64,000 nt of DNA from Elusimicrobiota bacterium. Its GTDB lineage: Bacteria; Elusimicrobiota; Elusimicrobia; UBA1565. The number at the start of each line of letters is the position of its first letter. The first letter of the stretch is position 1. The notes under the pieces were generated by a model. That model saw only the letters and a list, made by a program, of their open reading frames with translations. It was not told where the DNA came from and made no database searches. Both the position numbers and the translations under genes were made by a program. The DNA lies in assembly GCA_043827405.1 (NCBI GenBank), contig JBDRPD010000001.1, positions 489-64,488 of the forward strand, written 5' to 3'. Positions 13,038 to 53,339 of the stretch are shown here, one piece after another.

Positions 13038-13041
13038 GGCC

Positions 13042-13443: not shown

Positions 13444-13450
13444 AAACCGC

Positions 13451-13504: not shown

Positions 13505-14881
13505 TTAGAGCGGCCGCTTGCGGTCGTGGAGCCGGCGCAGTTCCTGCTTGATCGCGCTGCGGGTGTTCGCGACGGGGCCGGCCCGCAGCGCCTTGCGGAA
13601 GAATTTTTCGGAGTAGTCGAATTTGTCTTCCTTGACCAGGCATAGACCCATGCCGTAATAGGCGTCGGCCACCGCGGGGCCCCGGAGCGACAGCTGGATG
13701 GCGAGGCGCAGGCTGCGGGTGAAGTACTGCTGGGCGCCTGCGATACGGTTTTCCTTGTACTCGATCATGCCGAGGCGTTCCAGGTAGCGCACCCGGCGGG
13801 CGTCGTTGGCGTGGATAAGGGTGTCGACCGTCTCCAGCTCCTTTTTGGCCTCTTCCAGCAGGTCCAGGTCGATGTACTCGCCGGCGCGCCGGAGGTAGCT
13901 GTCGGCCGTGATGCGCTGCGGCATATTCTTGACCGGCCGCGTTCGCCGTCCCGAGAAGAGCGGGCGGTCGTGGCCGCCCCAGCGGGCGGTGACGCTAAAC
14001 AGGTGGGAGGAGCCGAGGTCGCCGAACGGCGCAAAGGCATAGTCGAAGATAAAATAGTTCGCGCTCCAGCCGACGCCCGCCGTGACGCCGGGCCCGGCGT
14101 CATTGCGCGTATTGAAGCCGATGCGAACCGGTACCGTCGGCACCGGGTGGAACTCGGCTCCGCAGGCGATGCGGACGCTGTCGCTGCGCTCTTTGGTGAC
14201 GTCGAAGGCGGCGGTATGCGTGCGCTGCATGAGGTCGAAATCGAAGGAGGCGCCCATCCGGATATTGAGCGGCAGGTTCTCCTTGGCTCGTTCGAATTGC
14301 GTGGTCGAGCCGATGTTCTGGAGCGCGATGCCCAGGCGCAGATCGGGCACGTTGGAAATCTCGTACAGGGCGCCCAGGTCGATCGCCCGGGCGGTGCCGA
14401 CGGTATTGTCGACGCTTTCGCGGATGTACTTGACGCCCACGCCCAGGCTCAGCAGCTCGTGCACGACCCGGCCGTAGCCGACGGTGAAAGCGAAATCGGT
14501 CAGCGCCGCGCCGCCGAGCCCCGCGCCGCTGGGGTTGGATACCGTGGTGCGGGGGATGTCGCGCATGCTTAGATAGTTGAGGTTCAGCCCCCAGCCCCGG
14601 CGCGCCGCGAAACCGAAGTACTCGCGCGTGATGCCGAGGATGTGGCTGTTGTGCATGAAGGTCAGCTCATGGTCGGTAATCCGGCCGAGACCGGCGGGGT
14701 TGTACAGCAGGGCGTTCGAGTCGGTGGCCAGCGACGTGTAGGCGCCGCCCAAGGCGGCGGCGCGGGCGTTGGCGTCGAGGAACAGGAAGGAGAAAGGCTC
14801 CCCGCCCGCGGCGGCGGCCGCGGCTTCGCGGCTCCCGCCCAGGAGCGTCAGCGCCAATATGAGCAGTCGCAGTCCGTTCAT
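13505..14881 (-). CDS. PorV/PorQ-family (FadL-like) outer-membrane beta-barrel with C-terminal TPR domain
   Basis: Signal peptide, FLFLDANARAAALGGAY...YNPAGL, barrel ending FDYAFAPFGDLGSSHLFSVTARW, then TPR helices; ATG 14881 overlaps the cargo stop (ATGA); 458 aa. Confidence 0.85.
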   Translation of the reverse strand: MNGLRLLILALTLLGGSREAAAAAAGGEPFSFLFLDANARAAALGGAYTSLATDSNALLYNPAGLGRITDHELTFMHNSHILGITREYFGFAARRGWGLNLNYLSMRDIPRTTVSNPSGAGLGGAALTDFAFTVGYGRVVHELLSLGVGVKYIRESVDNTVGTARAIDLGALYEISNVPDLRLGIALQNIGSTTQFERAKENLPLNIRMGASFDFDLMQRTHTAAFDVTKERSDSVRIACGAEFHPVPTVPVRIGFNTRNDAGPGVTAGVGWSANYFIFDYAFAPFGDLGSSHLFSVTARWGGHDRPLFSGRRTRPVKNMPQRITADSYLRRAGEYIDLDLLEEAKKELETVDTLIHANDARRVRYLERLGMIEYKENRIAGAQQYFTRSLRLAIQLSLRGPAVADAYYGMGLCLVKEDKFDYSEKFFRKALRAGPVANTRSAIKQELRRLHDRKRPL

Positions 14882-14900
14882 CGTATGATCAGCAGCTTCC
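14877..14900. repeat. 24-bp cargo/PorV junction identical to 24020..24043
   Basis: ttcatcgtatgatcagcagcttcc occurs at both junctions. Confidence 0.9.
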
Positions 14901-17900
14901 GTATGATCGCTTCCTGGCCGCCGCTCTTGATGACGGCGACGTACCCGCCGGTCGCCACGTCGCGGCCGTCGCGGTTGCGGGCGTCCCACTGAATCCGGCC
15001 GGAAGCCACCGAATTGAGGTCGGTTACCAGCTGGCCCGCTAGGGTGTAAATCTTTATGCTGGTCCCTTCCGGCAGCAGATCGAAGATGATGCCCGAGTTC
15101 GGGTTGCCGGAAGCGTACGGTACGCCGTCATCGGTGAGCGTGTTGTTCGGCCGGTACGGGACGGGGTAGACCAGGATAGAGCCCAGGTCCGAATGCTTGG
15201 GCGCGAAAAGCGCGAAGATGCTGAAATGCGGCGTTTCGCCCGTGACGGTGCGGTTGCGGGTGTCCGCCGTCGATGCGAAATCACGCGTCCAGGAGCCCGC
15301 CGCCGCGTCGTAGTAGTAGATTTTCAGTTCGCTCGCCCGTACCGACGTGCCGTCGACGAAGCCGTCGCCGTCCTCGTCGGGGTAGCCGATGCTCAAAGTC
15401 GCCGTCTGCCCGCCGCTGAGGTCGGTCTGGCTGGGCGTCAGCGTGATCTCCACGCTGGTCCCGATCGGGGTAACATCGCTTCGCGCCGCCGGCGTGGTGG
15501 TCGGGTTGTTGGTTATGGTTACGGTTTTGGTGGACTCGTTGAGGGCGCCCGCCGGGATGCTCAGCCGGGTTACTTGGGCCTTGGACGGGTCGGCCGCCCG
15601 AACGCTGCTGAGCGCGCCGTTGTTGATCACCTGCTGCAGCTTGACGCGGGCGCCCCCCGCCTGGCTGTTCTCGTTGATGTCCCAGTTCGCCGGATCCACC
15701 TCGATCAGGACCGAGGGCGGGGCGGGATCGGCCGCGGCGCTCCGGTCGGTGGCGACCGCGCGCAGGTTGTAGCCGGTAGCGGGCAAAGGCAGGGTCTTTA
15801 CGTCCCAGTGCACAAGGTACGGGTAGGTGGTGTCCGGATTGGGATTGCTGTCGCTCGCGGGAGGGATGTCGATCCACACCGTATCGGTCGAGTGCTTGTA
15901 CTGGAACAGCACTTTGCTTACGCTTTCGGCCGCGCCCTGCGTGATGTCGGCGGCTATCGTCACCCGGTCCCCCGCGATCTTCTGTCCGCTGCGGGGGGAG
16001 CGGATGGAGGCGCGCACGTCGGGCAGGGCGTCGGCCGCCCCGGCCGTGGCCGTGACGGTGAAATTCGTCTCCTCCGTGCCGCAGGAGTTTTTCGCGCGCA
16101 GGCCGAAGGTGTAGGCGGCGCTCGACGTCAGCACATTCGTGGTGAACGTGGTGACCGTTGAGGTGAATACGGCGAGCGGCGCGGAGTAGTTGACGACTTC
16201 GGTTCCGCCGTCGAAGTACAAGCGGTACTGGGAGGCCAGCGCGTCCGGCGAGGGCGTCCAGTTGAGCGCTACCCGGCGTCCGGACAGGCTCTCGGCGGTC
16301 AGCCCGCTCGGCGCCAGCGGGGTCGAGCCCAAGGTCTGGAATTCGGCGATGGCGGCGAAATCCGTGGGTACGCCGTCGCCGTTGAGGTTGCGGATGCGGA
16401 AGTAATAGGTCGTGCAGCCGAGCAGGCCGAAGTCGGTATAGCTGGTGACGGCGCCGGTGGCGATCGTCGTAAACGTCGCGTTGTCGGTCGAGCGCTGGAT
16501 ATCGGCGAGCGTATGCGCGGGGTTGGTGTTGCTGTTCCAGGAGAACGCCGCGCTGGAGCCTTCGATCTGGGTCGTCACCGCGCCGGTCGGCGGCATCGCC
16601 AGGGTATAAATCGTGGCGGTGGGCGTCAGCGGTCCCCCGCCCAGAACGTGCAGCGGCTCGATGAATATCCCGTAGGCGGTATTTGTTTCGAGCGCCACCT
16701 CGTCGAGCGTCGTCACCGACGGGTTGGCGAGTAAAGTGGCCGGCTCGGACGCGCGGTAGACGTTGTAGCTGGCGGCGTCGGCGGATGCGGTCCATGACCA
16801 GGTAACCGACGAGATGCCCAAAGTGGTGCCGACCGGGGTGCCCGGACGGGTGGCGCCGTCGGCCCAGTTGATCAGCCCTCCCGGGTCGCCGTCGAAGCTC
16901 TCGCCCTTATAGGCGCCGGTGGACTGGAAGAACAGCCAGGCCAGCGCGGGGTTGGCGCCTTCCACCCGGACGTTGTAAGGGAAGGGAGCAGCCGTAAAGT
17001 CGCGCGACATTCCGAAAGCGATGCTGTAGAAGGTCGCGTTCGAGGTCAGGTTGCGGACGGTGAGGTAGCTATTGGTCGCGCCGGTGATGCCCAGATAGTC
17101 GAAGGCGGCGGTGGATATCAGGACCCCGGCGCTTCCGGAAAGCTGGATGCCGTTGCCGTCCATATTCGTCATGGATGACAGGCGGGCGCTGAATGCTCCC
17201 GAGGAAACGAAGGAATAATAGGTCGCCGCGGAGTTGAGGCGGTCCATGACCGTATAGGCGGCGTTGGCGCCGAGGAGCTGCAGGCCGCCGCTCGGCGCTA
17301 CCGTCAGCTTCGAACGGCCGGCATTTAAGGAAGAGGCCGCGGGCCCGAAGAGGAACCGCTTCTGCTTATTGGAATCCTGCGGTGTCGAGACCAGGGCGAA
17401 CTCCAGCCGGTCGCCTTCGAGCGGCGTGGCGGCGCCGGTAAAATTGACCCTGAACAGCGGGCTGGCGGCCGGGATATCGATGCCCGAAAGGTTGCCGGCG
17501 AAGATATGCATGTCGACGCCTGAAGATGAGCCGTCGACATGCCACTGGTTGTCGCGGTACTCGAAGGTGATGAGCTGGCTGACGACCGTCGCGTCATAGG
17601 TCTGGGTGACGGCGAGGCTGTGGTTCGGTCCGCGCATCGCCCGGGGGACGGTCGCGGTTGAGGCGTAGAGCGGGGCGGTGTAGTCGAACGTCCAGGTCGA
17701 GCCGGATATCTCATGGCTGCCGTAGAAGCGCGCCGTGCCGGTGGCGTAATCCTGGTGGTAGGACAGCAGGTAGGTCCCCTGAGTGTCGAAGCCCGTCGTA
17801 GCGATGCCGCCGGCGGGGTGAACCCGTGCGGCCTTGAGCGTCAAGTTCTCGACGCCGCCGGCATTAAACATCACTTCGCCGGCGGTGTTGGGAAAGGCCG

Positions 17901-20985: not shown

Positions 20986-21024
20986 TGGACTACCTTTCTC
21001 TTTGCTGTTCAAATTCCGGTTCCG

Positions 21025-22461
21025 TTAATGCCAGACCGTCCCGCCGACGCCTGCGCTATCGAAAGCGGAGAGGACGGTATTTGTCGAGACGACCATATTG
21101 ACGCTGTTGCTGCAGTTCGAGCAGAAATACAGGATGCCCGCACGTCCCGGGATCATCGCTTCCAGCTGCGCCTGGGTGCGTGAATAGATGCCGATACCGC
21201 CGGCCACATCCAGCGCCGCGGCGGGAGTCGCTGTGCCGACGCCGACGCGTCCGCCGGTCACGACCAAGGTCGATATGCCGACGGAAAAAGCCGCCGGATC
21301 GCCGTCCACGATGAGAGTTCCCGAGCTCATGTGCAGCAAGGACGCGGGAATCGCCGTGCCCAGACCGAGCCGCCCGGCGCTGGTCAGGATCATCGATGAG
21401 GCGCCGACCTGGAAGGCGACCGGCGCGTTGCCGTTGATGAACAGGGTGCCGGAGCTTACGTTGACGACGCCGGTGGCGGCGCCGAAGCCCGGAATCAGGA
21501 CCACGCTGCCGCCGGGCGCGGTGCCGGAGCCGCCGCCGCCGGTGATGACGACGTGGCCGCCGGGGATATTGTTGCCCGCGCCCTGGGAGGCGCCGCTGCG
21601 TACCTGGATCTCGGCGCCGGAGGCATTGATGCCGGTGGAGGCGCCGCGGATAATGACCGTCGAAGTGCTGGCCGCCGGGGAGTCGACGTCGACGTTGCCG
21701 CTCTGGATCAGGACGTTGCCGCCGGCCGCGTTGTTGCCGTCGCCGGCCAGCAGGCGGATGTCGCCGCCGCGCGTGCCGTTGGAGATGCCGCCGTCGTTGC
21801 CTTTGCCGCCGATGATGGTGAAGGAGCTGCCGTCGACCGCCGAGCCGCTGCGCGGCAGGATGATCTCGAGCGGCTTGGCCGTCGACTGCGTCAGGTCCTG
21901 GACGCGCGAGATGCCGCTCTCGGTGAGATGGTAGATCCCCGTTTTGAACCGCGCCGCGGTGAAGCTGGAGTTGGTATTGGTAAAGTCGTAGGTGCCGGCG
22001 AGGGTTCCGGTCGCGATATCGTTGGTGATCGTCGCGGTGTCGGCCCTAAGGGCTTGGAACGCGTAGCCGGCCGCCTGCACGCGCATGCGGGGGGCGAGCG
22101 CCTCGAAAGTGCCGACGCAGTCGCCGTCGGCGTCCACCTGCCGCTCGAGCCAGACGGCGTCATTGTTCTGAAAGATCGCGGCGGTGATGCCGCCCGATGT
22201 CGAGCCGATCTCCACGTCGAAGCGTCCTTTGGTCACGCTCAAGTTGCAGCGCGTTTCCGTAAACAGCGGCGCGGAGCAGTCGCCGCTTTCCGTGGCGCAG
22301 AGCAGGAACTTCATGTCCGTGGGCGTGTCCAGGGGCTGCAGCGTGGACTTGTCCAGGAGAAATCCCTGGTAGTTGATGGTCGGCGTGATGCCGGCGCGTG
22401 CGGTGCCGGTCCACAGCAGCGACGCGGCCAGGATGAGAAATAGAGTGCTGTTCTTTTTCAT
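21025..22461 (-). CDS. Secreted tail-fibre-like (trimeric beta-fibre) protein
   Basis: GAGGAG RBS, signal peptide, TINYQG..L N-terminal domain, Gly-rich GG.V.I..G repeats, GRLGLGTAIP and GRVGVGTATP..ALDV fibre repeats. Confidence 0.7.
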   Translation of the reverse strand: MKKNSTLFLILAASLLWTGTARAGITPTINYQGFLLDKSTLQPLDTPTDMKFLLCATESGDCSAPLFTETRCNLSVTKGRFDVEIGSTSGGITAAIFQNNDAVWLERQVDADGDCVGTFEALAPRMRVQAAGYAFQALRADTATITNDIATGTLAGTYDFTNTNSSFTAARFKTGIYHLTESGISRVQDLTQSTAKPLEIILPRSGSAVDGSSFTIIGGKGNDGGISNGTRGGDIRLLAGDGNNAAGGNVLIQSGNVDVDSPAASTSTVIIRGASTGINASGAEIQVRSGASQGAGNNIPGGHVVITGGGGSGTAPGGSVVLIPGFGAATGVVNVSSGTLFINGNAPVAFQVGASSMILTSAGRLGLGTAIPASLLHMSSGTLIVDGDPAAFSVGISTLVVTGGRVGVGTATPAAALDVAGGIGIYSRTQAQLEAMIPGRAGILYFCSNCSNSVNMVVSTNTVLSAFDSAGVGGTVWH

Positions 22462-22647
22462 CGTAGTGCTCCTCGACAAGCCATATATAACGGCATCGGG
22501 CTAAATATATTTAAGCCCGGAAAGAATAATAATCAAGATGCGGCGCTGCCCGCGAATTCCCCTTACTAAAGAGGAAGCGCGTCAATATTCTGGGATATCA
22601 TCGTTACAGGCCCGTTACAGCCGTGTTGCGATTTTGCGCTATAAATT

Positions 22648-24024
22648 TCAGTCTTTCTGGTGGGTGCGCCGGCGTTTAAGCTGGCGGACGCTGCGGTTGA
22701 TGTCGGCGCGGGAGGCGGCCGACGGTCCGGCCTGGAGGGCTTTGAGGAAGAACTGCAGGGCGCGGTCGAACTCGCCCTCTTTGACCAGGCACCGGCCGAT
22801 GCCGGCGTAGGCGTCCGCGACCGCGGCGCCGCCGAGACTGAGCTGGATCGCGATCTTGATGCCTTCCTGATAGTACGTCTTCGCTTGGTAGAGGCGGTTG
22901 CGGCGCAAAGCGATCGTGCCCAGCCGCTCGCGGTAGCGCACGCGTTTGATATCGTCGGATCGAATATGCGGTTCGAGCGCCTCCAGCTCCTCTTGGGCCG
23001 CCTCCAGCATGCCCATCTCCATAAACTCGTCGACGACATCGAAGTCGTCGGACGCGGCGAGCTTGGCCGGACGCTCCAGGCGCTGGGAGCCGCGCTTGGG
23101 GAGGCGCCGCAGGGGGATGCCGCCTTCCCAGCGGGCCGTTACGCTGAAGCGGTGGGTGAGTCCCAGGTCGCCGTAGGGAGCGAAGGCGTAGTCGAAAGCG
23201 AAGTTCTTGTGAATCCAGCCGATGCCCGCCGTGACCCGCGGTCCGGTATCGCTGCGCGTGGTGAAGCCGAGGCGCAGCGGCATGGCCGGCGCCAGGCGGG
23301 TCTCGACGCCGAAGGCGACAAGCAGGGCGTCGGAGCGCTCCTTCGACAGGTCGAGAGATACCGTATGCTCTTTGTCGCGGTACAAGATGTCGTAGGCGGC
23401 GCCGAGCCGGACATTGAGCGGCAGGCTTTCGCGCTTATCGAGGAATTGGACGGTGGGTCCGATGTTCTGGACCGCCGTTCCCAGCCGGAAATCGGGGTAG
23501 GACTGGCTGTTGTAGAGGACGCCCAGGTCCAGCGCGTAGCCTTCGGCCGAGATGCGGTCGATGCTTTCGCGCACGAACTTCACGCCGGCTCCGAAATTGA
23601 AATCGTCGCTGTAGGCCCAGCCGTAGCCCGCTCCCGCCATAATGTCCGACATGCCGGTGCGCCCCAGCCCGGTGCCGGTGGGGTTGTCGAGCGTGGTGCG
23701 CTGCACGTCGCCGAAAGAGAGGTAGTTGAGGTGCAGCCCCCAGCCGCGCGGCGCGGCATAGCCGATGTAGTCCTGGAAGACGCCCTGCGCATGGCTGTTA
23801 TGCATGAAGGTCAGCTCATGGCCGTCGGCCTTGCTCAGGCCCGCGGGGTTGTACTGCAGTGCGTTGGCGTCGACGGCCTGCGCCGTGTAGGCGCCGCCCA
23901 GCGCCGAGGCGCGGGCATTGGCGTCCAGGAAAAGGAAATCGAAGACCTCGCCGCCGGCGGCGCCCGCCGGCGAAAGGCGGGCCCCGCAGAACAGCAGCGC
24001 CATGCTGAGCAGTATCCTCTTCAT
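22648..24024 (-). CDS. PorV/PorQ-family beta-barrel with C-terminal TPR, paralog of 13505..14881
   Basis: FLFLDANARASALGGAY...YNPAGL, FDYAFAPYGDLGLTHRFSVTARW, TPR; ATG 24024 overlaps the cargo stop; also 458 aa. Confidence 0.85.
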   Translation of the reverse strand: MKRILLSMALLFCGARLSPAGAAGGEVFDFLFLDANARASALGGAYTAQAVDANALQYNPAGLSKADGHELTFMHNSHAQGVFQDYIGYAAPRGWGLHLNYLSFGDVQRTTLDNPTGTGLGRTGMSDIMAGAGYGWAYSDDFNFGAGVKFVRESIDRISAEGYALDLGVLYNSQSYPDFRLGTAVQNIGPTVQFLDKRESLPLNVRLGAAYDILYRDKEHTVSLDLSKERSDALLVAFGVETRLAPAMPLRLGFTTRSDTGPRVTAGIGWIHKNFAFDYAFAPYGDLGLTHRFSVTARWEGGIPLRRLPKRGSQRLERPAKLAASDDFDVVDEFMEMGMLEAAQEELEALEPHIRSDDIKRVRYRERLGTIALRRNRLYQAKTYYQEGIKIAIQLSLGGAAVADAYAGIGRCLVKEGEFDRALQFFLKALQAGPSAASRADINRSVRQLKRRRTHQKD

Positions 24025-24043
24025 CGTATGATCAGCAGCTTCC
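24020..24043. repeat. 24-bp cargo/PorV junction identical to 14877..14900
   Basis: Exact match by inspection. Confidence 0.9.
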
Positions 24044-27000
24044 TCACGACCCGTTCCTGTCCGGGGCTTTTGATTACGGCAAAGTAGCCGCCGGAGGCCG
24101 CGTCGCGTCCCGAATCGCCGCGGACGTCCCACTGTGCCCGGCCCGAGTTCCCCGAGTTGAAGGCGGCCACGCGCCGCCCCGAGAGCGTATAGATCGTTAT
24201 CTCCGTGCTTTCCGGCAGCTCGGAGAAGATGATTCCGGAGTTCGCATTGCCGGCACTGAAGGCGACTCCGTCGTTGGGGTCGTCGTTGCCGGGGACGAAC
24301 GGCACCGGGAATACGTTGACCTCGTCGGCGCGCGCATGCGCCGGCGCGGCGAACAGCGCGAAGAAGCTGAAGTGCGGCGTGAGGCCGGTGACGGTATGGC
24401 TGGCCAGATCGACCGTCGAAACGATGTCATCCGTCCATTTCCCGGTCACGACGTCATAGGAGTACATGCGCAGGCTGCTGGCGCTGATGTTCAGCACGTC
24501 GACTCTCCCGTCGTCGTTGTCGTCCGGGTAGGTCAGCGTGATCGCGGCCATTTGGCCGCCGGCGAGGTCGGTCTGCTGGTTCGAGAGCGTGATCTCGACG
24601 CTGACCCCGGCCGACACCAGGTCCGTTCCCGTCGCCGGCAGGCTCGTCGGGTTATTGGTGACGCTCGCCGTTACCGTGGAGGCGCTGAGCGCTCCGGCGG
24701 GAATGACGATTCTGACCAGCTTCTCGGACGACTTGTCCGCCGCCTGGATGGTGTTCTGCGTCCCGTTGTTGATGACCTGCTCGACGACGGTATCGCTGCC
24801 GTTGAAGCTCTCGCTGACGTCGAACTCCGCGCTCGCGGTTTTGCTGATCGTTATGCTGGGAGGCGTCGGGTCGGCGGTCAGCGCGATATCGGTCGCGACG
24901 GCGCGCAGATCGTACGCGGTGGCGGACATGGCGTCGATGTTCCACTGAACGAAGTAAGGGAATATGCGGTCCGGGTTGGGATGCTCGGCATCGGCCGCCG
25001 GGATATTCCGCCATACGCTCTCCGTGGAGACCTTATACTGGAACAGAACCTCCCGCGTCTGCAGCGGAACGCCGAGGCGGAGCTCGGCGGCGACCGTCAG
25101 GCGGTTGCCCTTTACCCGCTGTCCGCTTAACGGCGAGCTGACGGCGGCGCGCACGGCGGGTAAAGTGTCAGCGGCCCCCGCCGCCGCGGTGACATGGGTG
25201 TTGGTCTCCTCCATCCCGCAGACGTTGAGGGCGCGCAGGCCGAAGACGTAGGCGGCGCTGGATGCCAGGACGTTGGTCGTAAAGCTCGTCGCCGTCGAGG
25301 CCAGCACCGCCAGCGGCGCGCCGTAGTCGACGCTGCCGTCTCCCGCGTCGTAGTAGAGGCGGTAGGCCGCGATCTGCGAACTCGGCGAGGGCGTCCAGCC
25401 GAGCGCGATGCGCCGCCCCGTCAGGCTCTCGGCCGTAAGCGCCCCCGGCGCCGCCGGGGTGGAGTTCGCGGTCATGAATTGCAGCGTCGTGTCGTACGCC
25501 GTCGTGATGCCGTCGCCGTTGATGTTGCGCACACGGAAGTAATAGGTGGTGCACCCGAGCAGCCCGTAGTCGGTGTAGCCCGCCGCCGCCACGGAGGCCA
25601 GCAGGCCGAACGCCGCGTTGTCGGTCGACCGGTACAGCTGCGCCTGCGTCCCCGCCGGATTGCCGTTGAGCCCCCAGCTGAGCACGGCGCTCGAGCCTTC
25701 CACCGTATCGGCCGCGGTTCCCGTCGGCGGGGCGGCCAAGGTCGTTGCCGAGCCGCTCGCCGAGGCGGAACCTGTGCCGCCCGCGCCCCAGCCTTCGGCG
25801 TAGACCTGATACCGGGTGTTGGGGACGAGGTACGCCTGCGTGAGCGCGGCCGCCGCCGTCGTTCCGATCACGGTCGCATGATCGGTGGAGAGGCGCAGGC
25901 GGTAGCCGTCGGCGCGGGCGGCGGCCGACCAGGTCCAGCTGATCGAGGAGATGCCGAGCACGCTGCCCGCGGGCTGTCCGGGGGCGGCGGGGGGCGGCGG
26001 CAGGGTGGTGGTCGTCACCGCGGTATCGAACGCCGTGACGACGCCGCCGTTGCCGAGCGTTCGTACCTTGAAGAAATAGGAGGTCGTGGAGGCCAGGCCT
26101 TCCGCGAGGTGCGCGCTGGTGGTTACGACGGTCTTGACCGGCGCTGGGAAGGTGATGTTTTCGTCGCGCCAGACCTCGTAGGAGGTGCCCGGTTCGGCGT
26201 TGCCGTTGGGCGACCAGTCGATGTAGGCCGAGACGCCCGTTACGTACTGCGCCGCCGTGGCCGTCGGGGCGTTGGCCGCGGTGGAGGTCGAACCGAAATC
26301 GACATAGACGCTGATGCTGTTGAGGCCGACCGCGCGGACGCGCAGATAGTGGGTGGTGTTGGCCTGCAGGGCCGGGCCTTCGCCGCCGGCGCCGAAGGCG
26401 GCGCTGGTATTGCGGGTCATGGAGCTGGCGTTGATGGAGGTGAAGCCGTCGGTGGACAGCTGGGCTTCATAGGAAGTGCTCGGGCCGTTGCCGCCGGAGG
26501 TCCAGCGCCCGGACAGCGCGTTGGTTACGACGCCGGAGAATATCGTCGTGTCGACGCCCGGCGGCAGCAGCAAGGTCGCCGTCGTCGGCAGTACGGTGTA
26601 GAGCGAGCCGGAGCCGTTATGGCCGAGCGCCTGGACGCGGAAGGAATAGGTGGTGTTGGCCGTCAGTCCGCCGAACTCGACGGAGGTGTAGGGCGTGCGG
26701 CTGGAAGTGTGGAGCGTGGTGAATTCGTCGGTGGAAAGCTCGATATTGTAGAGCGTGCCGGCCGGGCTGCCGTCGGCGTCCCAACGCGCCGTGATCGTGC
26801 TGAAGGTGATGCCGGTGGGATCGAGCGGCAGCGGCCGCGCGGCCTTGGTCGGCGTGCCGGGCGGGCTCGCCGGCGCGCTGTACGTTCCGCCGTGATCGAC
26901 GGCGCGGATGCGGACAAAATAAGTGGTGTTGGGGATGAGATCGCCGCCCGAGCCGCCGGAGCCGAACAGCACCGAGAGGTTGCGCGTCATCGAACTGACG

Positions 27001-30000
27001 TTGGCGGTCGTGAAGTCGTCGGTGGAGAGCGCGGCGTCGTAGAGCGTGCCGTCCGGATTGCCGTTCGCCGTCCAGGTCACGCTGATCGAGGTTACGTCCA
27101 CGGCCGCCAGCGTTCCATTGTCGGGCGGACGGGCCAGCGTAAACGAGCGGCCGAGGTCGGTGTAGGGCGTCGCGGCGCCGTTGCGGTTGACGGCGCGGGC
27201 GCGGACGTAGTGCGTGGCGTTGGTCTGCAAATCTTCACCGGCGCCGCCCGCGCCGAAGAGCACCGATGTTTCGCGCGTCGCGGAGGTGAGGTTGACGGTC
27301 GCGAAGCCGTCGGTCGAGAGCTGTACCTGATAGGATGTGCCGGCGGGATTGCCGCCGGCGTCCCAGTGGGCGCGGACGGCGTCGGCGGCGATATCGCTGA
27401 AATAGCCGGCGCCGGGAGCGGCGGCGAAGGTCGCGTCGGTCGCGCCGACGACGATGTAGTGGGCGCGGCCGCCGTGGCTGAGCGCGCCGACGCGGAAGTA
27501 GTACGACGTGTCGGGCGACAGCCCCGCCGCCGTCAGCGTGCTCAGCTCGACGTTGGCGGTAATTGAGGAAATCAGGATGCCGCCGAAGGCCGTGTCCGTT
27601 CCCGCTTCCAGCACATAGCCTTCGCAGGTATCGGTAGGGGGGGCGGTCGGCAGCGGGACCCAGTTCAGGGTGACGCTGGTGATATGGAGCCCGGCGAACT
27701 GGCCGCCGCCGACGGGGTTCGGGAGAGTCGCGACGGTAATGGTAGCGGCGTAGACCAGCAGCGAGGAGTGGCCGGCGGCGACGCGCAGGTAATGGGTCGT
27801 ATTGGTCTGCAGGTTGAACACGGTGAGAGATTCGACCAGGTCGTTGGCGGTCGACGATGATTCCACCGTGCCGCCGAAATCGGCGGCCGACGACGACTCC
27901 AGCAGGTAGCCGTTGTTGGCAAAGACGGAGAGCCAGGTGATGGTAATGCTCGAGGGGTAGACGGCGCCGACGGCCGGCGAGTCCGGCGGCGGGTCGGTCG
28001 ACAGGGTCGCGGCGTTCGGGAGAGCGGCGTAGCCGGTTTCGGCGTTCTCGCGGTTGCGCGCCTTAACGCGGAAGTAGTAGGTCGTGCTGTTTGTCAGGCC
28101 GGTGAAGCGGAAGTCGAAACCCGTGAGCCAGCCGCTGGCGGCGACGCCGGAGGTGAACCCTGCGTCGGCGGCGATCTCGGCGCTGTATTCGGTGCCGGCG
28201 GGGTTGCCGTTCGCGCCCCAGTGGGCGCGCAGCGCGGTCGGGGAAAAGCCGCTGTGCGGCTGCGGCTCCGGCAGCGCCGCCAGCGTGATCTCGGACGGGA
28301 GGGCCGCGGCCGCGGTGGTTCGTCCGGCGCCGTTGCGGGCGCGGACCCGGAAATAGTGCGTGGCGTTGGGCGCCAGGCCGGTGAACGCATGGGCCAGCGC
28401 GGCGGCCCAGCCGGAGTCCGCCTGTACCTGTGCGAAGCCTTGGTCGTCCGCTCTTTGCGCCTGGTACTCCACCGCCGACGGGTTGCCGTTCGCCGTCCAC
28501 TGGACGGTAACCGATGCCGCCTGGACGTCGCTGGCGGCGGCGGCGCCGGGCGTATTGGCCAGGGTATAGGTGGTGACGGCGGCGGTGTAGGCGCTCGCGA
28601 TGCCGCCGTGATTGACGGCTTGGATGCGGTACTGGTAGGAAGTGCCGGGGGTGAGCGCCGAGCCCTCGCCGCCGGCGCCGAAGAGGGCGGTGGAGCCGGA
28701 GGTGGCCGAGCTGGCGAAGACGCCGGCGAAGCCGTCGCTGGATATCTCGGCCGCGTAGCGGGTGCCGGCCGGGTTGCCGTTGGCGGTCCAGTTGACGGTC
28801 AGGGCGTCCGCGGCGGCCGCGGGGGGCGCGGCGGCCGGCGCTTTGGTCAGCGTGACCGCGTCCGGCAGCGACGCGAGCGTAGTTTCCTCGAGCTTGGCGC
28901 TGCGCGCCTTGACGCGGAAATAGTAGGTCGTGTTGACCGCCAGCCCGCCGAAGGCGTGGCTGGTCGCCGTGATCCAGCCGGAGTTCGCGGGCGAGGAGAA
29001 GCCCGGATCCGTGTCCCGCTCGGCGTAGTACTCCGTATTGGCCGCGTTGCCGTTGGCCGACCAGGCGGCGGTGACGTTGTTCTCCGTGATGCTCAGCGGC
29101 GGGGCGCTCACGGGCCGGGCGGCGTGGGTAAGTGTCGACGAGAGAACGGTCGCCGCGGACTCGGTCGCGGCGCCGTTGCGCGCGGCGACGCGGAAGTAGT
29201 AGGTGGCGTTGCTTACCAGGCCGGTGAAGGCATGGCTGGTGGTGTAGATCCAGCCGCTGGAGGTGCGGCCGAGCGTGAAGGCCGCGTCGTTGGCGCGCTC
29301 GGCGAGGAACTCGGTCATGTCCGGGTTGCCGTTCATCAGCCAGTTGGCGGTAACCGAGCTTTCGCCGACGCCGGATAAGGCGGCGGCCTCGGGGCTGGCG
29401 GCCAAAGTGTAGTCCGCGTTCAGCGGGACGCTGGAGGTTTCGACGCCCTGGTGGCTGCGCGCGCGTACCCGGAAATAATACGGGGTGTTGACCGTGAGGT
29501 CGGTGAACGCTTCGCTGGTATCCGTCGTCCAGGCTCCCGCGTTCAGGTTGGAGGTAAAGTCCGCGTCCTCGGCGATTTCGGCGAGATATTGCGTGCCCGC
29601 CGGATTGCCCGCGGCGCTCCAGTTGGCCGTCAGCGCGCTGTCGGTATGACCCGAGAACGCCGCCGCCTGCGGCGCCAGGGCGAGGGTCGCCGTCGTCGGC
29701 AGATCGAGCGCCGAGGTCTCGACCTGCGCCGCGCTCCGGGCCTTGACGCGGAGGTAGTAGGTGGTATTGACCGCCAGCCCCGCGAACTCGTAGCTCAGGG
29801 CCGTTGTCCAGCCGCTGCCGACGGCGTCGCCGTAGCCGCTGTCGGCGGCGCGCTCGGCGTAGTATTCGATGCCGGCGGGGTTGCTGTTGGCGGTCCAGTT
29901 GGCGGTCACGGCAACCGAAGAAACGCCGGTCGGTTCGGCCGATCCCGGTTGCGCGATGGTCGTCGCCTGCGCGGGCAGGGCGGTGACGGCGGTCTCGGCG

Positions 30001-33000
30001 CCGGCGGCATTGCGCGCGCGCACGCGGAAGGAGTAGCTCGTATTGGGGCTCAAGCCCGTGAACTCATAGCTGACCGCGGTCGTCCATGGGGAAGAGACCA
30101 AATCGACGGTGAAAGCCGCGTCGTCGGCCTTTTCCGCGAGGTATTCAATGGTCCCCGGGTTGCCGTTGGCCTGCCAGTTGGCGGTGATGGCGACATCGGT
30201 CACTCCGCTGGGACTGGCGGAAAGCGGCGGCGCCGGCAAGGTCATGGTTTCCGGCAGGATCGTGGTCAGCGATACCAGCTGGCTCGAATTGCGCGCTTTG
30301 ACGCGGAAGTAGTAGGTAGTGTTCAGCGTCAGGCCGGAGAAGGTATGACTGAGCGCCGAGATCCAGCCCGAGTTCGCTTGTCCGGACGTATGGCCCGCGT
30401 CGTCCGCCTTTTCGGCATAGTACTGGGTGCCGCCGGGATTGTTGTTCGCCGTCCACAAAGCGGTGACGGAATGCGAGGCGACGTACAGCGGCGCCGCCGC
30501 GCCGGGCGGGGCGGCAAGAGACTGCGTTACGGGCAGATCCACGGGAGCCGTTTCGGTGCCGTAGCTGTTGCGCGCGCGGGCGCGGAAGTAATACGTCGTT
30601 CCCGGGGCCAGGCCGTTGAAGGTATGGCCGGTGGCGGTGATCCAGTTCGAGCTGCCGTAGCCGACGGTGTAGCCGGAGTTCCGCGCGTACTCGGCGCGGT
30701 ACTCGGTGCCGCCGGGGTTGCTGTTGTCGAGCCAGCTGGCGGTGATGGAGGAGAACTCCACCGCCGACGGCAGCTGCGCGATGGGGGTGGTGGCCAGGGT
30801 GACCACGGAGCCGAGCGAGGCGTCGGCGGTCGGCAGCCCTCCCCAGTTGAGCGCGCGGGCGCGGAAGTACTGGGTCGTGTTGGGCTCGAGGTCTTCGCCC
30901 TCGCCCCCGCGGCCGAACGTCATGGCCGTCTGCTGGGTGAGGGTGCTGACGTTGGTGGTGGAGAAGGCGTCGGTGGAGCTCTCGACCGCGTAGCGGGTGC
31001 CCGCGGGATTGCTGCTGGTCGACCAGTTCGCGGTCACCGCGTTGTCGGCGGTGCCGCTGAAGGCCGCCGCTCCCGGCGCCGCCGCCAGCGTCGCCGTTTC
31101 GGGCAGGGTGGTGAACCCGCTCTCCACCCCCGCTCCGTTGCGGGCTTTGACGCGGAAGTAGTAGGTCGTGTTGCGAAACAGGGTGTCGAAGTTGAAGTTC
31201 AGGGCGGTGGTCCATTCGCCGCCGGTGGGGCCGGAAAAGCCGGGGTTCGCCGCGCGTTCGCAGTAATACTCCGTGCCCGCAGCGTTGCCGTTGGCCGTCC
31301 AGTTCAAGGTGATCGACGACAGGCTGATGTCGGAAGCGGCGGCCGAGGCCGGCGCCGCGGGGACGGTGACGGCGTTGGGTAGGGAGGTCGTCGAGGTCTC
31401 GATGCCGGTGAAGCCGCGCGCCTTGACCCGGAAGTAGTAGGTCGTTCCCGACGAGAGACCGCTGAATACGTGGCTGGTCGACGTCGTCCAGCCCGAGTTC
31501 TCTAGCCCCGCGATGAAGTCGGGGGCGTTGGCTTTTTCGGCGTAGTACTGCGTCCCGCCGGGGTTGTCGACGGCGTCCCAGTTGGCGGTCACCGAGCCGA
31601 TGAATACATTGGTGGGCGCGGCGGCGGCGGGGGGGCGGGGGTAGGTTAGAACGGCGGGCAGGCTGACCGTGGAGGTCAGCACGCCGACGCCGTTTTTGGC
31701 CCCGGCGCGGAGGTAGTAGGTGGTGTTGGGCGCGAGGCCGGTGAAGGCGTAGCTTTCCGCCGTGGTCCACCCGGAGTTGGCCAGGCCGCTGTTGAACAGG
31801 TTGTTGAGCGCGCGCTCGGCGCGGTACTGCGTCCCGGCGGGGTTGCCGTTGGCGGTCCAGGCGGCGGTGACGCTGGAGATGCCGAGGTCCAGGGCGGCGG
31901 CCGATGCGGGTACCTCGGCGCCGCTCATCGAGGACCAGACGAAGGTGGAGGACTGGACGAGGTCGGTGCGGCGCGCACGGCCGCGGAAGTAGTAGGTGGT
32001 GTTGACCGCCAGGCCGGTCACTCCCATGCTGAGCGCGGTGGTCCAGCCGCTGTCGGCCAGCCCGGCGGTGAAGTCGACGTCGTTCGCTTTCTCGACGAAA
32101 AACTCGGTGCCGCCGGGGTTGTCGTTCTCTCCCCAGTTGGCCGTCATGCTGGAGGTGGTCACCCCGGTGGACGCCGCCGGGGCGGGATAGTCGGCGAGGG
32201 TGCGTATCGAGATGGCGGTGGAGGTCGCCGAGTCGACGGCGTTGCTGACGACGATGAAAGCGGAGTAGGAGGTATTGGGCAGGAGGTCGATCTCGCCCCA
32301 GTCCATGGTGTCGCCGGCCAAGTCGCCGGAGAGCATCTCCTCGTCGCCGGCGCGCAGCACCAGCACCCCCGAATTGTTAGTCGCGCCGGGCGACCAGGCC
32401 CAGACAACTTCCCGGGCCGTGGCCGTTGTCAGGCCGGCGTCCATCGCCGGGACGCCGTTGAGCGGCGGGGTGCCGAGGATCTTGCCGTAGCCCCATTCGT
32501 CGTTCGGGGTGCCCTGCGTGAAGCCGTCCTCGCGGCCGGCCTGCAGCTCGCTCATGATCTGCGCCGGGGTCAAGTTCGGATTGGCGGCCAGCTTGAGCGC
32601 GATGACGCTGGTGACCACCGCCGCCGCCATGCTCGTGCCCTCGGCGTAGCGGTGGAGGTTGTCCTGGGCGATGTACGTGTCGTCGGGCGGCTCGTCCATG
32701 TCGGCCGACATTGCCGACCCGACGCGCTCGCCCGGCGCCATGATGTCGGGCTTGTAGCGGCCGTCGCGGGTCGGCCCTTGGCCGCTGAAGCCGGAGAAGT
32801 CGCCGAAGTTGCAGTTGATGTCGGTCGCCGGGTTGTCGTTGAGGTCGAACCAGGAGAACTTGGAGCAGTAGGAGCCCGCCTGGATGACGTTGGCCGCCAG
32901 GCCCGGGCTGGCGACGGTGCCGAGGGTGCCCGCCGAGAAGGTGGCGAAGCCGGTCTCGCCGGTGGTGTAGCCGTTGACCGTGCCGCCCGGCGCGGTGGTG

Positions 33001-34322
33001 GTCAGCACGACCTCGTAGAAGGCGGCGGTGATGGGGTCGGCGGTGATCAGGACGCTGATGCGTTTGTCGCCCGCCGGATGGCCCGGATAGGCGCCGTTGG
33101 TGATTTGGATGAGATGGCCGTCGAGGGTGTCGGAGTTGTTGCTGCCGTCGGTCGCGCTGACGCTGCCGGCGACGCCGTCGAGGATGACCTCGACGGTATA
33201 GGCCTGGCTGCTGTCGAACCAGAACTCAGACCATGCGGCCGTCGCTTCGCTGATGAGGTCGATCTGCACCGTCTCCGACGAGCTGTCGGTCATGTCGAGC
33301 TCGGCGTGCATGTCGTTTTCGGCGGAGTTGCCGGCGGCGAAGACGATGGGGGTGCTGATGCCCAGAGCTGAGAAGGACTGCTCCAGCGCCGTCGTGCCGT
33401 CATGCGGGCCATAGTCGGTCGTCCAGCTGATATTGATCACCAGCGGCATGCCGAGGGCGCCGGCTTTGGCGATGAGATAGTTGGCCGCGTCGAGGAGGCC
33501 GGTCTCGGTGCCGTCATGCTTGACCACCATGATGGCGGCGCTCGAGGCGAGGCTGGTGAAGGTGCCGGGGGGCTGCAGATCGTTGCCCGCGTTGCCGTTG
33601 CCGGCGGCGATGCCGGCGATATGGGTGCCGTGCCCGTCGGTGTCGGAGGAGCGCACGACCCCCGCCGGGATGCCGTCGAGCTCGTCGTTGATGTTCGCTT
33701 CGGTCCACTCCGAGCCGTAAGCGAAGCCGCTGGGGTTCGGGCCGCCGGCATCGCTCTGGTCCCAGATATTGCGGATGCGGGTGTAGGTCGTGACGTCGAC
33801 GAAGGTGAAGTCGCTGTGGCGCCAGTCGATTCCCGTGTCGATGATGCCGACGATCACCCCCGCGCCGTCGATGCCGTTGAGGTCGGAGTTGGCGGCGAGG
33901 ACGCCGAGGTAGCCGCCGGCGTACATGTTCGCCGAGGCCACGACGTCGAGCGCCGGTCGCACCCGGTGGGAAATTTCGATCGACCGGATCAGCGGGCTCT
34001 GCGCGAGCTCGTCGAGCAGCGCCAGCGGGATGCGCGCCGTCACCACGCGGCCGGTCAGGCTGCCGATGCGGGCCTGCGGGAACCGTGCGCGCAGCGCTCC
34101 CATATCCGCATCCTGCTCCAGCCGGATGAAAACGTCCGCCATGGGCGTGGGCTGTTCGGGATGAAGGGCGAAGCGGCTCTTGAGCCGCTGCAGTTCCTCG
34201 CGGGACGCGTCGCGCATTTGGCGCAGGTGGAAGTCGGCTTTATCGGGCGCCTGGGCGGAAACAAGGGGCGCGCCGACCAGGCCGGCCGTCAGCACGATGC
34301 AGAGCGCACGAACAAATTGCAC
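24021..34322 (-). CDS. Giant secreted S8 subtilase with about 25 FN3 repeats and T9SS/FlgD-like CTD (3433 aa)
   Basis: Catalytic triad IIDTGID / GHGTHIAG / GTSMAA; about 25 repeats ending in L..NT.YYFRV.A; C-terminal VFPVPF...ITIYTLSGRRV...WDVRGDSGRDAASGGY...RKLLIIR; GTG start. Confidence 0.92.
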   Translation of the reverse strand: MQFVRALCIVLTAGLVGAPLVSAQAPDKADFHLRQMRDASREELQRLKSRFALHPEQPTPMADVFIRLEQDADMGALRARFPQARIGSLTGRVVTARIPLALLDELAQSPLIRSIEISHRVRPALDVVASANMYAGGYLGVLAANSDLNGIDGAGVIVGIIDTGIDWRHSDFTFVDVTTYTRIRNIWDQSDAGGPNPSGFAYGSEWTEANINDELDGIPAGVVRSSDTDGHGTHIAGIAAGNGNAGNDLQPPGTFTSLASSAAIMVVKHDGTETGLLDAANYLIAKAGALGMPLVINISWTTDYGPHDGTTALEQSFSALGISTPIVFAAGNSAENDMHAELDMTDSSSETVQIDLISEATAAWSEFWFDSSQAYTVEVILDGVAGSVSATDGSNNSDTLDGHLIQITNGAYPGHPAGDKRISVLITADPITAAFYEVVLTTTAPGGTVNGYTTGETGFATFSAGTLGTVASPGLAANVIQAGSYCSKFSWFDLNDNPATDINCNFGDFSGFSGQGPTRDGRYKPDIMAPGERVGSAMSADMDEPPDDTYIAQDNLHRYAEGTSMAAAVVTSVIALKLAANPNLTPAQIMSELQAGREDGFTQGTPNDEWGYGKILGTPPLNGVPAMDAGLTTATAREVVWAWSPGATNNSGVLVLRAGDEEMLSGDLAGDTMDWGEIDLLPNTSYSAFIVVSNAVDSATSTAISIRTLADYPAPAASTGVTTSSMTANWGENDNPGGTEFFVEKANDVDFTAGLADSGWTTALSMGVTGLAVNTTYYFRGRARRTDLVQSSTFVWSSMSGAEVPASAAALDLGISSVTAAWTANGNPAGTQYRAERALNNLFNSGLANSGWTTAESYAFTGLAPNTTYYLRAGAKNGVGVLTSTVSLPAVLTYPRPPAAAAPTNVFIGSVTANWDAVDNPGGTQYYAEKANAPDFIAGLENSGWTTSTSHVFSGLSSGTTYYFRVKARGFTGIETSTTSLPNAVTVPAAPASAAASDISLSSITLNWTANGNAAGTEYYCERAANPGFSGPTGGEWTTALNFNFDTLFRNTTYYFRVKARNGAGVESGFTTLPETATLAAAPGAAAFSGTADNAVTANWSTSSNPAGTRYAVESSTDAFSTTNVSTLTQQTAMTFGRGGEGEDLEPNTTQYFRARALNWGGLPTADASLGSVVTLATTPIAQLPSAVEFSSITASWLDNSNPGGTEYRAEYARNSGYTVGYGSSNWITATGHTFNGLAPGTTYYFRARARNSYGTETAPVDLPVTQSLAAPPGAAAPLYVASHSVTALWTANNNPGGTQYYAEKADDAGHTSGQANSGWISALSHTFSGLTLNTTYYFRVKARNSSQLVSLTTILPETMTLPAPPLSASPSGVTDVAITANWQANGNPGTIEYLAEKADDAAFTVDLVSSPWTTAVSYEFTGLSPNTSYSFRVRARNAAGAETAVTALPAQATTIAQPGSAEPTGVSSVAVTANWTANSNPAGIEYYAERAADSGYGDAVGSGWTTALSYEFAGLAVNTTYYLRVKARSAAQVETSALDLPTTATLALAPQAAAFSGHTDSALTANWSAAGNPAGTQYLAEIAEDADFTSNLNAGAWTTDTSEAFTDLTVNTPYYFRVRARSHQGVETSSVPLNADYTLAASPEAAALSGVGESSVTANWLMNGNPDMTEFLAERANDAAFTLGRTSSGWIYTTSHAFTGLVSNATYYFRVAARNGAATESAATVLSSTLTHAARPVSAPPLSITENNVTAAWSANGNAANTEYYAERDTDPGFSSPANSGWITATSHAFGGLAVNTTYYFRVKARSAKLEETTLASLPDAVTLTKAPAAAPPAAAADALTVNWTANGNPAGTRYAAEISSDGFAGVFASSATSGSTALFGAGGEGSALTPGTSYQYRIQAVNHGGIASAYTAAVTTYTLANTPGAAAASDVQAASVTVQWTANGNPSAVEYQAQRADDQGFAQVQADSGWAAALAHAFTGLAPNATHYFRVRARNGAGRTTAAAALPSEITLAALPEPQPHSGFSPTALRAHWGANGNPAGTEYSAEIAADAGFTSGVAASGWLTGFDFRFTGLTNSTTYYFRVKARNRENAETGYAALPNAATLSTDPPPDSPAVGAVYPSSITITWLSVFANNGYLLESSSAADFGGTVESSSTANDLVESLTVFNLQTNTTHYLRVAAGHSSLLVYAATITVATLPNPVGGGQFAGLHITSVTLNWVPLPTAPPTDTCEGYVLEAGTDTAFGGILISSITANVELSTLTAAGLSPDTSYYFRVGALSHGGRAHYIVVGATDATFAAAPGAGYFSDIAADAVRAHWDAGGNPAGTSYQVQLSTDGFATVNLTSATRETSVLFGAGGAGEDLQTNATHYVRARAVNRNGAATPYTDLGRSFTLARPPDNGTLAAVDVTSISVTWTANGNPDGTLYDAALSTDDFTTANVSSMTRNLSVLFGSGGSGGDLIPNTTYFVRIRAVDHGGTYSAPASPPGTPTKAARPLPLDPTGITFSTITARWDADGSPAGTLYNIELSTDEFTTLHTSSRTPYTSVEFGGLTANTTYSFRVQALGHNGSGSLYTVLPTTATLLLPPGVDTTIFSGVVTNALSGRWTSGGNGPSTSYEAQLSTDGFTSINASSMTRNTSAAFGAGGEGPALQANTTHYLRVRAVGLNSISVYVDFGSTSTAANAPTATAAQYVTGVSAYIDWSPNGNAEPGTSYEVWRDENITFPAPVKTVVTTSAHLAEGLASTTSYFFKVRTLGNGGVVTAFDTAVTTTTLPPPPAAPGQPAGSVLGISSISWTWSAAARADGYRLRLSTDHATVIGTTAAAALTQAYLVPNTRYQVYAEGWGAGGTGSASASGSATTLAAPPTGTAADTVEGSSAVLSWGLNGNPAGTQAQLYRSTDNAAFGLLASVAAAGYTDYGLLGCTTYYFRVRNINGDGITTAYDTTLQFMTANSTPAAPGALTAESLTGRRIALGWTPSPSSQIAAYRLYYDAGDGSVDYGAPLAVLASTATSFTTNVLASSAAYVFGLRALNVCGMEETNTHVTAAAGAADTLPAVRAAVSSPLSGQRVKGNRLTVAAELRLGVPLQTREVLFQYKVSTESVWRNIPAADAEHPNPDRIFPYFVQWNIDAMSATAYDLRAVATDIALTADPTPPSITISKTASAEFDVSESFNGSDTVVEQVINNGTQNTIQAADKSSEKLVRIVIPAGALSASTVTASVTNNPTSLPATGTDLVSAGVSVEITLSNQQTDLAGGQMAAITLTYPDDNDDGRVDVLNISASSLRMYSYDVVTGKWTDDIVSTVDLASHTVTGLTPHFSFFALFAAPAHARADEVNVFPVPFVPGNDDPNDGVAFSAGNANSGIIFSELPESTEITIYTLSGRRVAAFNSGNSGRAQWDVRGDSGRDAASGGYFAVIKSPGQERVVRKLLIIR

Positions 34323-53323: not shown

Positions 53324-53339
53324 GCGCCCTGTCCTTGGT

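Follow-up and report, generated by a model that had tools for sequence, protein, structure and literature searches.

In the machinery for type IX secretion (T9SS) of Porphyromonas gingivalis, the attachment complex contains PorZ and PorU, surface proteins whose C-terminal domains (CTDs) remain uncleaved and which are held on barrels of the PorV/PorQ family as the pairs PorZ–PorQ and PorU–PorV (PMC10947112). For type B cargos, PMC12618676 describes a cargo gene linked to its own barrel gene, the barrel being required for that cargo and anchoring it; the same source has a single PorV serving all type A cargos in Bacteroidota. In P. gingivalis and Flavobacterium johnsoniae, PorE, which combines a tetratricopeptide repeat (TPR) with OmpA_C, bridges the PorP-like barrels of type B cargos to peptidoglycan (PMC9143113). 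Here we describe a related arrangement in a 64,000-nt stretch of contig JBDRPD010000001.1 from an Elusimicrobiota bacterium (the whole stretch is called the window below), in which two giant secreted proteins end in T9SS-like CTDs and the gene of each overlaps that of a PorV/PorQ-family barrel with a C-terminal TPR domain. We put a probability of roughly 0.55, somewhat better than even, on the reading that each cargo stays bound through its CTD to its own PorQ-like barrel, which would itself be tethered in the periplasm. A first-pass annotation, made from the sequence of the window alone, had set the pairs against the shared PorV shuttle of Bacteroidota; the closest analogues appear instead to be PorZ–PorQ, PorU–PorV and the type B series of CTD, PorP and PorE.

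Positions below are those of the whole window, and all module genes lie on its minus strand, where five co-directional genes fall within 13505–34322. Cargo B (24021..34322; 3433 aa) comprises a Sec signal peptide, an S8 subtilase head, an fn3 array, a stalk of ~650 aa and a CTD made up of its last 115 aa (24024..24368). It is followed by barrel B (22648..24024; 458 aa counted from its ATG), a PorV/PorQ-family barrel joined to a putatively periplasmic TPR domain of three TPR motifs and a capping helix (residues 320–458; 22651..23067). Cargo A (14878..21012; 2044 aa) carries a signal peptide, fn3, G8, a NosD-like right-handed beta-helix head, a stalk of ~650 aa and again a CTD of 115 aa (14881..15225), and precedes barrel A (13505..14881; 458 aa), with its own C-terminal TPR domain, also predicted to be periplasmic (residues 320–458; 13508..13924). 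What the first-pass annotation had reported of this layout is borne out by gene coordinates, junctions and family scores: both cargos have signal-peptide-like starts and end in RKLLIIR, the TGA of each cargo and the ATG of its barrel are fused as ATGA, and the 24 nt containing this overlap are identical between junction A (14877..14900) and junction B (24020..24043).

This 24-nt stretch is the longest exact run common to the two modules, the runner-up measuring 21 nt. In every orthologue from other genomes the junction reads (C/A)GATGA while synonymous sites differ, so that the identity is partly explained by conserved tail residues together with the start/stop overlap. Gene conversion was set aside as its source, because orthologues keep the tail and the overlap with varied synonymous sites and because the identity stops at 24 nt. 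The modules are indeed paralogous, as had been proposed, but the locus does not represent a singular duplication. The barrels are identical at 224 of 451 positions (~50%) and the cargos are alike only over their last 652 residues (338 identical), which makes the modules old paralogues, among ~23 pairs in the genome, rather than products of a recent duplication.

Both barrels pass the NCBIfam model PorV_fam (NF033709, cut-off 90), barrel A scoring 144.9 bits and barrel B 155.8. Neither reaches the equivalog cut-offs, the scores being 105.7 and 102.1 bits for PorQ (NF033711, cut-off 220) and 62.5 and 61.9 bits for PorV (NF033710, cut-off 250). By these model scores the two are members of the PorV/PorQ family, not equivalogs. 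PorP_SprF (PF11751) has no match in either window barrel at E <= 0.01, and in Pfam and NCBIfam scans the same barrels showed neither POTRA nor TpsB features. An AlphaFold2 model of barrel B, built from 51 relatives, has a mean predicted local distance difference test (pLDDT) of 90.9 and shows, after a signal peptide and an FLFLDA segment, a 14-strand barrel (~69–299), a disordered linker (301–325) and seven TPR helices (328–457). From the topology of the barrel class, the even strand number should place the C-terminus and the TPR in the periplasm. Foldseek ranks highest two PorV chains from the F. johnsoniae translocon, 8gl6_F (E 7.7e-15) and 6h3i_F (2.5e-13). The description of 458-aa PorV-like barrels stands, in family for both and in fold for barrel B.

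The same search bears on the most sceptical view of the locus, namely that the barrels are ordinary FadL-type small-molecule channels whose adjacency to giant genes has no functional meaning. FadL and TodX do match barrel B significantly, at ~1e-8, yet the E-values of the PorV chains are better by six orders of magnitude. We rejected this reading, which we consider extremely improbable, on the strength of the PorV-like fold together with three results given below: the pairing rule (24 of 27 CTD frames here and 52 of 73 related loci), the co-diversification of CTDs and barrels, and a predicted CTD interface whose controls behaved as they should.

The cargos differ in their heads. Cargo B matches Peptidase_S8 (106.6 bits), with the Asp, His and Ser motifs of subtilases present on inspection by eye, and fn3 (379.3 bits over 11 stretches), and cargo A matches NosD (64.8 bits), Beta_helix (54.9 bits) and G8 (30.0 bits) as well as fn3. 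While such heads vary, the stalk and CTD, ~650 C-terminal residues in all, are kept in at least 13 loci with 37–53% identity over their full length. The T9SS-type label originally given to the CTD holds in part: the domain resembles T9SS CTDs in the PorZ model and in the PorZ and PorU structures, but on TIGR04183, the T9SS type A sorting domain, cargo A scores 17.0 and cargo B 19.0 bits, under the cut-off of 23. CHU_C was matched by cargo B only, with 17.1 bits against a cut-off of 27. The cargo tails match the C-terminal part of the PorZ model (positions 668–757 for cargo A, 33.8 bits). A profile of 15 CTD tails (alignment A4, mean column identity 64%), run against the PDB, has its best matches in the CTDs of PorZ (5m11_A, E 9.3e-9) and then PorU (6za2_A, 0.011). 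Judged by these profiles, the CTD, an immunoglobulin (Ig)-like domain, is nearest to the uncleaved CTDs of PorZ and PorU.

For one cognate pair we predicted the complex, once, from barrel B residues 22–458 (alignment A3) and the 115-aa CTD (alignment A4), in three runs with 3 controls. The interface score ipSAE was 0.91, 0.92 and 0.91 in the three runs and 0.00 in the best of the controls; at least 98% of contacts are common to the runs, with a partner pLDDT of 82 or more. The modelling that had been suggested for such a pair thus places the CTD on the barrel loops, with controls passed. The barrel residues in contact are 22–33, 79–82, 102–117, 123–125, 153–160, 194–200, 231–232, 257–260 and 284–287, which by strand parity would correspond to the extracellular loops and the mature N-terminal segment; none of the TPR residues lies in the predicted interface. 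In solved PorV–CTD complexes, too, substrates bind the extracellular loops of PorV, according to PMC10994853.

The pairing seen twice in the window recurs throughout the genome (4.33 Mb in 108 contigs, 98% complete), 30 stretches of which match PorV_fam. Using hidden Markov models built from the genome's own CTDs and barrels, and counting in stop-to-stop frames, we found a barrel directly downstream of 24 of the 27 CTD-ending frames and a CTD upstream of 23 of the 28 barrel frames (two of the 24 paired CTD frames share one barrel), a genome-wide count that agrees with the one-to-one pairing first noted at this locus. Most of these junctions are ATGA or GTGA overlaps. Distances among CTDs and among barrels co-vary across the 23 pairs (Mantel r 0.716) and, when the five pairs of the RKLLIIR subfamily are left out, across the remaining 18 (r 0.592), with 0 of 5000 permutations reaching the observed value in either case; nearest neighbours agree in 13 of the 23 pairs. 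As far as sequence distances tell, this shows that cargo and barrel genes duplicate and diverge as a unit, as would suit cognate recognition. The lone CTD frames lie on contigs C68 (1–23554), C62 (120010–121852) and C35 (1–1923), one of them being 7851 aa long, and a FliG_C match occurs ~8 kb from the end of the giant frame on C68.

Taken together, the pairing, the taxon titles of relatives, the PorV-like fold and the complex prediction support in silico a cognate cargo–barrel secretion or anchoring system, as the first-pass annotation had inferred. We envisage that the giant proteins are surface-displayed enzymes or adhesins, that they would be exported to the periplasm by Sec, since both carry signal peptides, and that they most likely cross the outer membrane through a divergent SprA-like translocon. 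The C-terminal Ig-like domain of each would then be captured on the extracellular loops of its own PorV/PorQ-family barrel, presumably co-translated with it in stoichiometric amounts. The CTD is probably retained, because no PorU-type sortase was found and because its nearest relatives are the uncleaved CTDs of PorZ and PorU. The barrel would thus hold its cargo permanently and without a covalent bond, in the way that PorQ anchors PorZ and the PorP-like barrels anchor type B cargos, and its periplasmic TPR most likely ties this anchor to a periplasmic or cell-wall-associated partner.

The retention of the CTD is the step on which an anchor and a carrier part ways. The barrels might be transient carriers at the SprA-like translocon, with the CTD cut off by a protease that our models do not recognise and the cargo released or attached to a lipid or glycan. 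The fold itself is in keeping with such a role, being nearest to the PorV of translocon complexes, and the CTD of F. johnsoniae cargo is bound within SprA by loops of PorV, with an affinity thought to fall after exit (PMC10994853). Against it, one barrel per cargo and translational coupling point to a partner made in step with the cargo and not to a carrier that is used again, PorQ outscores PorV as a model for both barrels, and the CTD profile is nearest to uncleaved CTDs. The protease searches cut both ways: in this genome Peptidase_C25 (PF01364) has no match and the PorU model NF033707 is matched only at positions 988–1095, its CTD part, in searches run without a positive control. A C25 or PorU catalytic match is what a cleaved CTD would lead one to look for, and overall we regard the carrier reading as unlikely.

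Permanent anchoring, as we prefer to read these barrels, still calls for a route across the outer membrane. The statement that neither sprA nor porKLMN is present in the window holds for its whole contig, on which SprA and GldLMN have no match; elsewhere in the genome, a 1909-aa frame on contig C17 matches the SprA model TIGR04189 in three collinear stretches (E 1.6e-42, 145 bits, cut-off 200). The outcome for the remaining machine is mixed: alongside the SprA-like protein, and with only the CTD part of PorU matched and C25 unmatched, we found no match in the genome for GldL/PorL and GldM/PorM (TIGR03513, TIGR03517, PF12081) or for GldN (TIGR03523) in searches that lacked a T9SS-positive control genome and did not extend to GldK. 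GldM is also unmatched in five genomes titled Gemmatimonadota, Poribacteria, Hydrogenedentota, WOR-3 and Elusimicrobia, which are therefore unusable as positive controls. Among 151 sampled Elusimicrobiota genomes, which are related to each other and not independent, 141 have a SprA-like match and 147 a PorV_fam match (above cut-off in 100), and the 4 genomes without PorV_fam are all among the 10 without a SprA-like match. T9SS-like parts are thus widespread in a phylum outside the stated range of the system, which one review confines to Bacteroidota and perhaps other phyla of the Fibrobacteres–Chlorobi–Bacteroidetes (FCB) group, with absence elsewhere (PMC11285876). The SprA-like gene (L118:8074–13803, minus strand, on C17) has a gene for an LptF-like permease as its divergent neighbour, and ~3.7 kb away a 423-aa TraF_2-family barrel with a weak PorV-family match at its N-terminus and no CTD partner is encoded (L118:17470–18741, minus strand).

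A SprA-like gene that is unlinked to the modules and scores under its family cut-off leaves some room for the idea that it is unrelated to the cargos and that the barrel itself is the export route, with help from the barrel assembly machinery (BAM), in the manner of two-partner secretion or autotransporters; the self-contained, translationally coupled gene pair would also suit this. We nonetheless think it quite improbable. The barrel is of the 14-strand FadL/PorV type, with N-terminal residues 22–33 among the predicted CTD contacts, and it shows no POTRA or TpsB features, while SprA-like and PorV-family genes co-occur across the phylum. In FadL the N-terminal segment fills the barrel lumen as a hatch, a property of FadL that is not read off the barrel B model.

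The extra C-terminal TPR claimed for these barrels is well supported, with Pfam TPR matches in both (residues ~338–437), TPR_1, TPR_2 and TPR_8 above their cut-offs, and a helical repeat fold in the model of barrel B. Modelled alone, the TPR of barrel B reaches a pLDDT of 93.6 and resembles the TPR2A domain of Hop with a template modelling (TM) score of ~0.73–0.77. Attempts to identify the TPR or its partner by PDB profile search and Foldseek were set aside, as they returned generic TPRs only (designed CTPRs, OGT, Hop TPR2A, PilF, and YbgF at rank 47), and no pointer to SprE, PorW or PorE came from these same searches. More can be said from relatives. Barrel B has 102 close relatives at E <= 1e-20, of which 38 have precomputed Pfam TPR matches and 6 have OmpA in place of the TPR, the remainder being mostly bare barrels of ~300 aa; for a few of 440–470 aa the C-terminal part has no recorded domain. 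When the 6 were scanned anew with Pfam, each proved to have OmpA, C-terminal to the barrel (start residues 359–491), with SPOR in addition in one, and at an orthologous locus (L046) a KKLLIIR-tailed frame stands with a barrel that, by eye, has an OmpA-like tail. Because a peptidoglycan-binding domain, OmpA or SPOR, can take the same position, we read the TPR as a periplasmic tether, which probably holds a wall-associated or some other periplasmic partner.

In this genome at least 8 barrels are TPR-tailed, four of ~455 aa, including both in the window, and four of 522–659 aa, and some of the longer ones have a different neighbourhood. The FliG_C model matches six places in the genome. On contigs C49 (L124:902–8717) and C54 (L125:123–5025) a giant CTD cargo and a TPR-barrel (529 and 636 aa, respectively) are followed by a FliG-domain protein and then by MotA and MotB, and on C42 (L126:1078–7805) the order is a 522-aa TPR-barrel, a histidine-kinase/FliG fusion, a 389-aa frame that matches no family and a MotB-like gene. 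Elusimicrobiota are not known to be flagellated. These loci, the failure to find GldL and GldM, which would call for another energiser, and the two CheY-like regulators after barrel A favour a different role for the fused TPR, either as a secretion adaptor taking the part of SprE/PorW at the translocon or as a coupler to an inner-membrane motor for the release or movement of cargo. The window offers little to match: FliG has no match on its contig, the 458-aa class has no neighbouring motor genes, and the regulators have no counterpart in the closest orthologous loci. The substitutes for the TPR, OmpA and SPOR, bind peptidoglycan and not a translocon, and the TPR matches themselves are generic. 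For the barrels of the window we therefore doubt this role and hold it to be unlikely, and continue to read their TPR as a tether of the anchor.

A broader scenario would accommodate both classes. Elusimicrobiota and several candidate phyla outside the FCB group might run a distinct, possibly ancestral relative of the type IX system, with a SprA-like pore and without PorKLMN or PorU, in which each cargo has its own PorQ-like barrel as a permanent anchor and the tails of these barrels (TPR, OmpA or SPOR) are plugged either into the wall or into flagellum-free FliG/MotAB motors, so that cargos would be held or moved. In that case the two CheY-like regulators downstream of barrel A could feed into such motors. 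We offer this tentatively, as a possibility whose chances fall well short of even.

Several points weigh against the anchor reading. All of the evidence is computational. The ipSAE mark passed by the predicted complex is reached by 58 of the 80 complexes with solved structures and by 2 of the 110 mismatched pairs, but we used alignments of our own, so that these calibration counts hold only roughly; moreover, the pass may partly reflect memory of solved PorV–CTD complexes (8gl6), and the prediction speaks for likeness and not for binding. Co-duplication of neighbouring genes would by itself give the co-variation of CTDs and barrels, without any specificity of binding, and the 3 CTD frames without an adjoining barrel and 5 barrels without an adjoining CTD would permit shared use. 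The SprA-like protein lies below its family cut-off, and since a phmmer search with it against the PDB gave 0 matches at E <= 0.01, its homology to SprA derives from the TIGR04189 profile alone. GldL, GldM, GldN, PorU and C25 are to be taken as not found rather than as shown absent, the control genomes including no T9SS-positive organism. On the side of the tether, the generic matches of the TPR name no partner. In favour of a tether, TPR-fused barrels in this genome go with longer cargos than other barrels (median 2535 vs 1128 aa; one-sided Mann–Whitney p 0.003, rising to 0.024 when a 127-aa frame is included), in a comparison that rests on few, related paralogues and on stop-to-stop frame lengths.

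The distribution of the module is broad. A pattern scan with one genome per species gave 201 relatives, of which the best 80 were kept. Most of these 80 are titled Elusimicrobia or Elusimicrobiota, and other titles are Desantisbacteria, Lindowbacteria, WOR-3, Firestonebacteria, Aerophobetes, Hydrogenedentota, Goldiibacteriota, Poribacteria, Gemmatimonadota, Nitrospirota, FCPU426 and Deltaproteobacteria, or carry no taxon label. The host is a member of the Elusimicrobiota and not a Bacteroidota with a canonical T9SS in which such a layout would be routine, and its best relatives are titled as Elusimicrobia or Elusimicrobiota metagenome-assembled genomes (MAGs), as expected from the proposal that the system lies outside Bacteroidota. 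A CTD-ending frame stands just before the barrel in 52 of the 73 loci that have enough upstream sequence, including 39 of 53 with Elusimicrobia-type titles and, beyond these, loci titled Desantisbacteria (3 of 3), Lindowbacteria, WOR-3, Firestonebacteria, Aerophobetes, Hydrogenedentota and FCPU426, and a Deltaproteobacteria-labelled MAG. Among the same 73 loci the layout is absent from those titled Gemmatimonadota, Nitrospirota, Poribacteria and Goldiibacteriota. In the closest orthologues the barrels measure 450–494 aa, the genes overlap by ATGA and cargo tails such as KKLLIIR occur. When 1.84 billion representative proteins were searched with a profile, 2467 matched at E <= 1e-30, and of the top 150 matches listed ~60, counted by eye, cover the profile through its TPR part; NCBI already names such proteins 'PorV/PorQ family protein'. 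The cargo–barrel module is common in Elusimicrobiota and present in several other candidate phyla.

Set beside the described systems, these modules share most with the PorZ–PorQ and PorU–PorV pairs, in that, after the family model, the barrels score best on PorQ and the CTD is nearest to those of PorZ and PorU. They differ in number and layout, with ~23 different pairs in this one genome that adjoin and are mostly translationally coupled, and in kind, the cargos being giant enzymes or adhesins instead of machine components, the barrels carrying a fused periplasmic TPR, and the phylum being Elusimicrobiota. Compared with the P. gingivalis T9SS, no PorU, PorL, PorM or PorN was detected here and the PorQ and PorV equivalog cut-offs are not reached; the machine appears reduced relative to a canonical T9SS. 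PorV (LptO; PDB 6h3i, 8gl6) is the best structural match and, as there, the CTD is predicted to sit on extracellular loops, whereas the pairing here is one-to-one, the PorV equivalog score is 62 bits against a cut-off of 250, and a TPR tail is added. Among type B examples, F. johnsoniae SprB–SprF and P. gingivalis PG1035–PorP–PorE, the logic of the tether matches the fused TPR and OmpA tails seen here. Unlike type B, however, the barrels are of the PorV/PorQ family (PF11751 being unmatched) and the CTD is type A- or PorZ-like, with TIGR03519 outside our search, and unlike PorE the tether is fused to the barrel and is not a separate lipoprotein. Literature searches, whose coverage did not extend to supplementary files, found no published description of this module. 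What is added here is the genome-wide count of pairs, the CTD–barrel co-variation, the PorZ/PorU-type CTD, the swap of TPR for OmpA or SPOR, and the motor-adjacent class in the same genome.

Other genes lie between and around the modules. Between them a Gly-rich secreted protein of 484 aa without a CTD (21025..22479, minus strand) weakly matches Bdello_MAT_N, the N-terminal domain of the mosaic adhesive trimer fibres of Bdellovibrio (19 bits, cut-off 60). Downstream of barrel A by 25 nt begin two single-domain CheY-like response regulators (12633..13479, minus strand; Response_reg 67.1 and 83.0 bits), which may be co-transcribed with module A and which have matches in 2 and 4 of the 80 related loci. 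Counterparts of the 484-aa protein, LysRS and NDK were found in 0 of those 80 loci. Lacking matches in the closest orthologous loci, the 484-aa gene, LysRS, NDK and the regulators fall outside the conserved unit. Farther off, at 7729–9245 (minus strand), a UVR-motif protein adjoins an ATP:guanido phosphotransferase, a pattern known from McsA/McsB, the paired genes of the protein arginine kinase in Gram-positive bacteria. On the plus strand, an 817-aa protein (42938–45391) has a TPR region and, at its C-terminus, a Ser/Thr protein kinase domain, and 48467–59781 holds three large alpha-amylase-family genes (1263, 874 and 801 aa), in a run broken by a Na/Ca exchanger gene and by a 444-aa gene that matches no family, the third amylase-family gene having a glucodextranase-type C-terminal module resembling S-layer homology (SLH) domains.

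If the anchor model is true, non-covalent anchoring of a CTD on a barrel, known so far for a few machine parts and for type B cargos, becomes a general strategy of surface display. The fused TPR and OmpA tails would then show, as an experiment made by nature, by what means such anchors can be secured to the wall, and bacteria of this kind would offer a simpler system, without known motor or sortase, in which to ask which step of type IX transport needs energy. Should the broader scenario also be true, surface giants moved by motors would parallel the gliding adhesins with different hardware. Recognition of the module would also aid the annotation of many giant surface proteins of uncultured bacteria.

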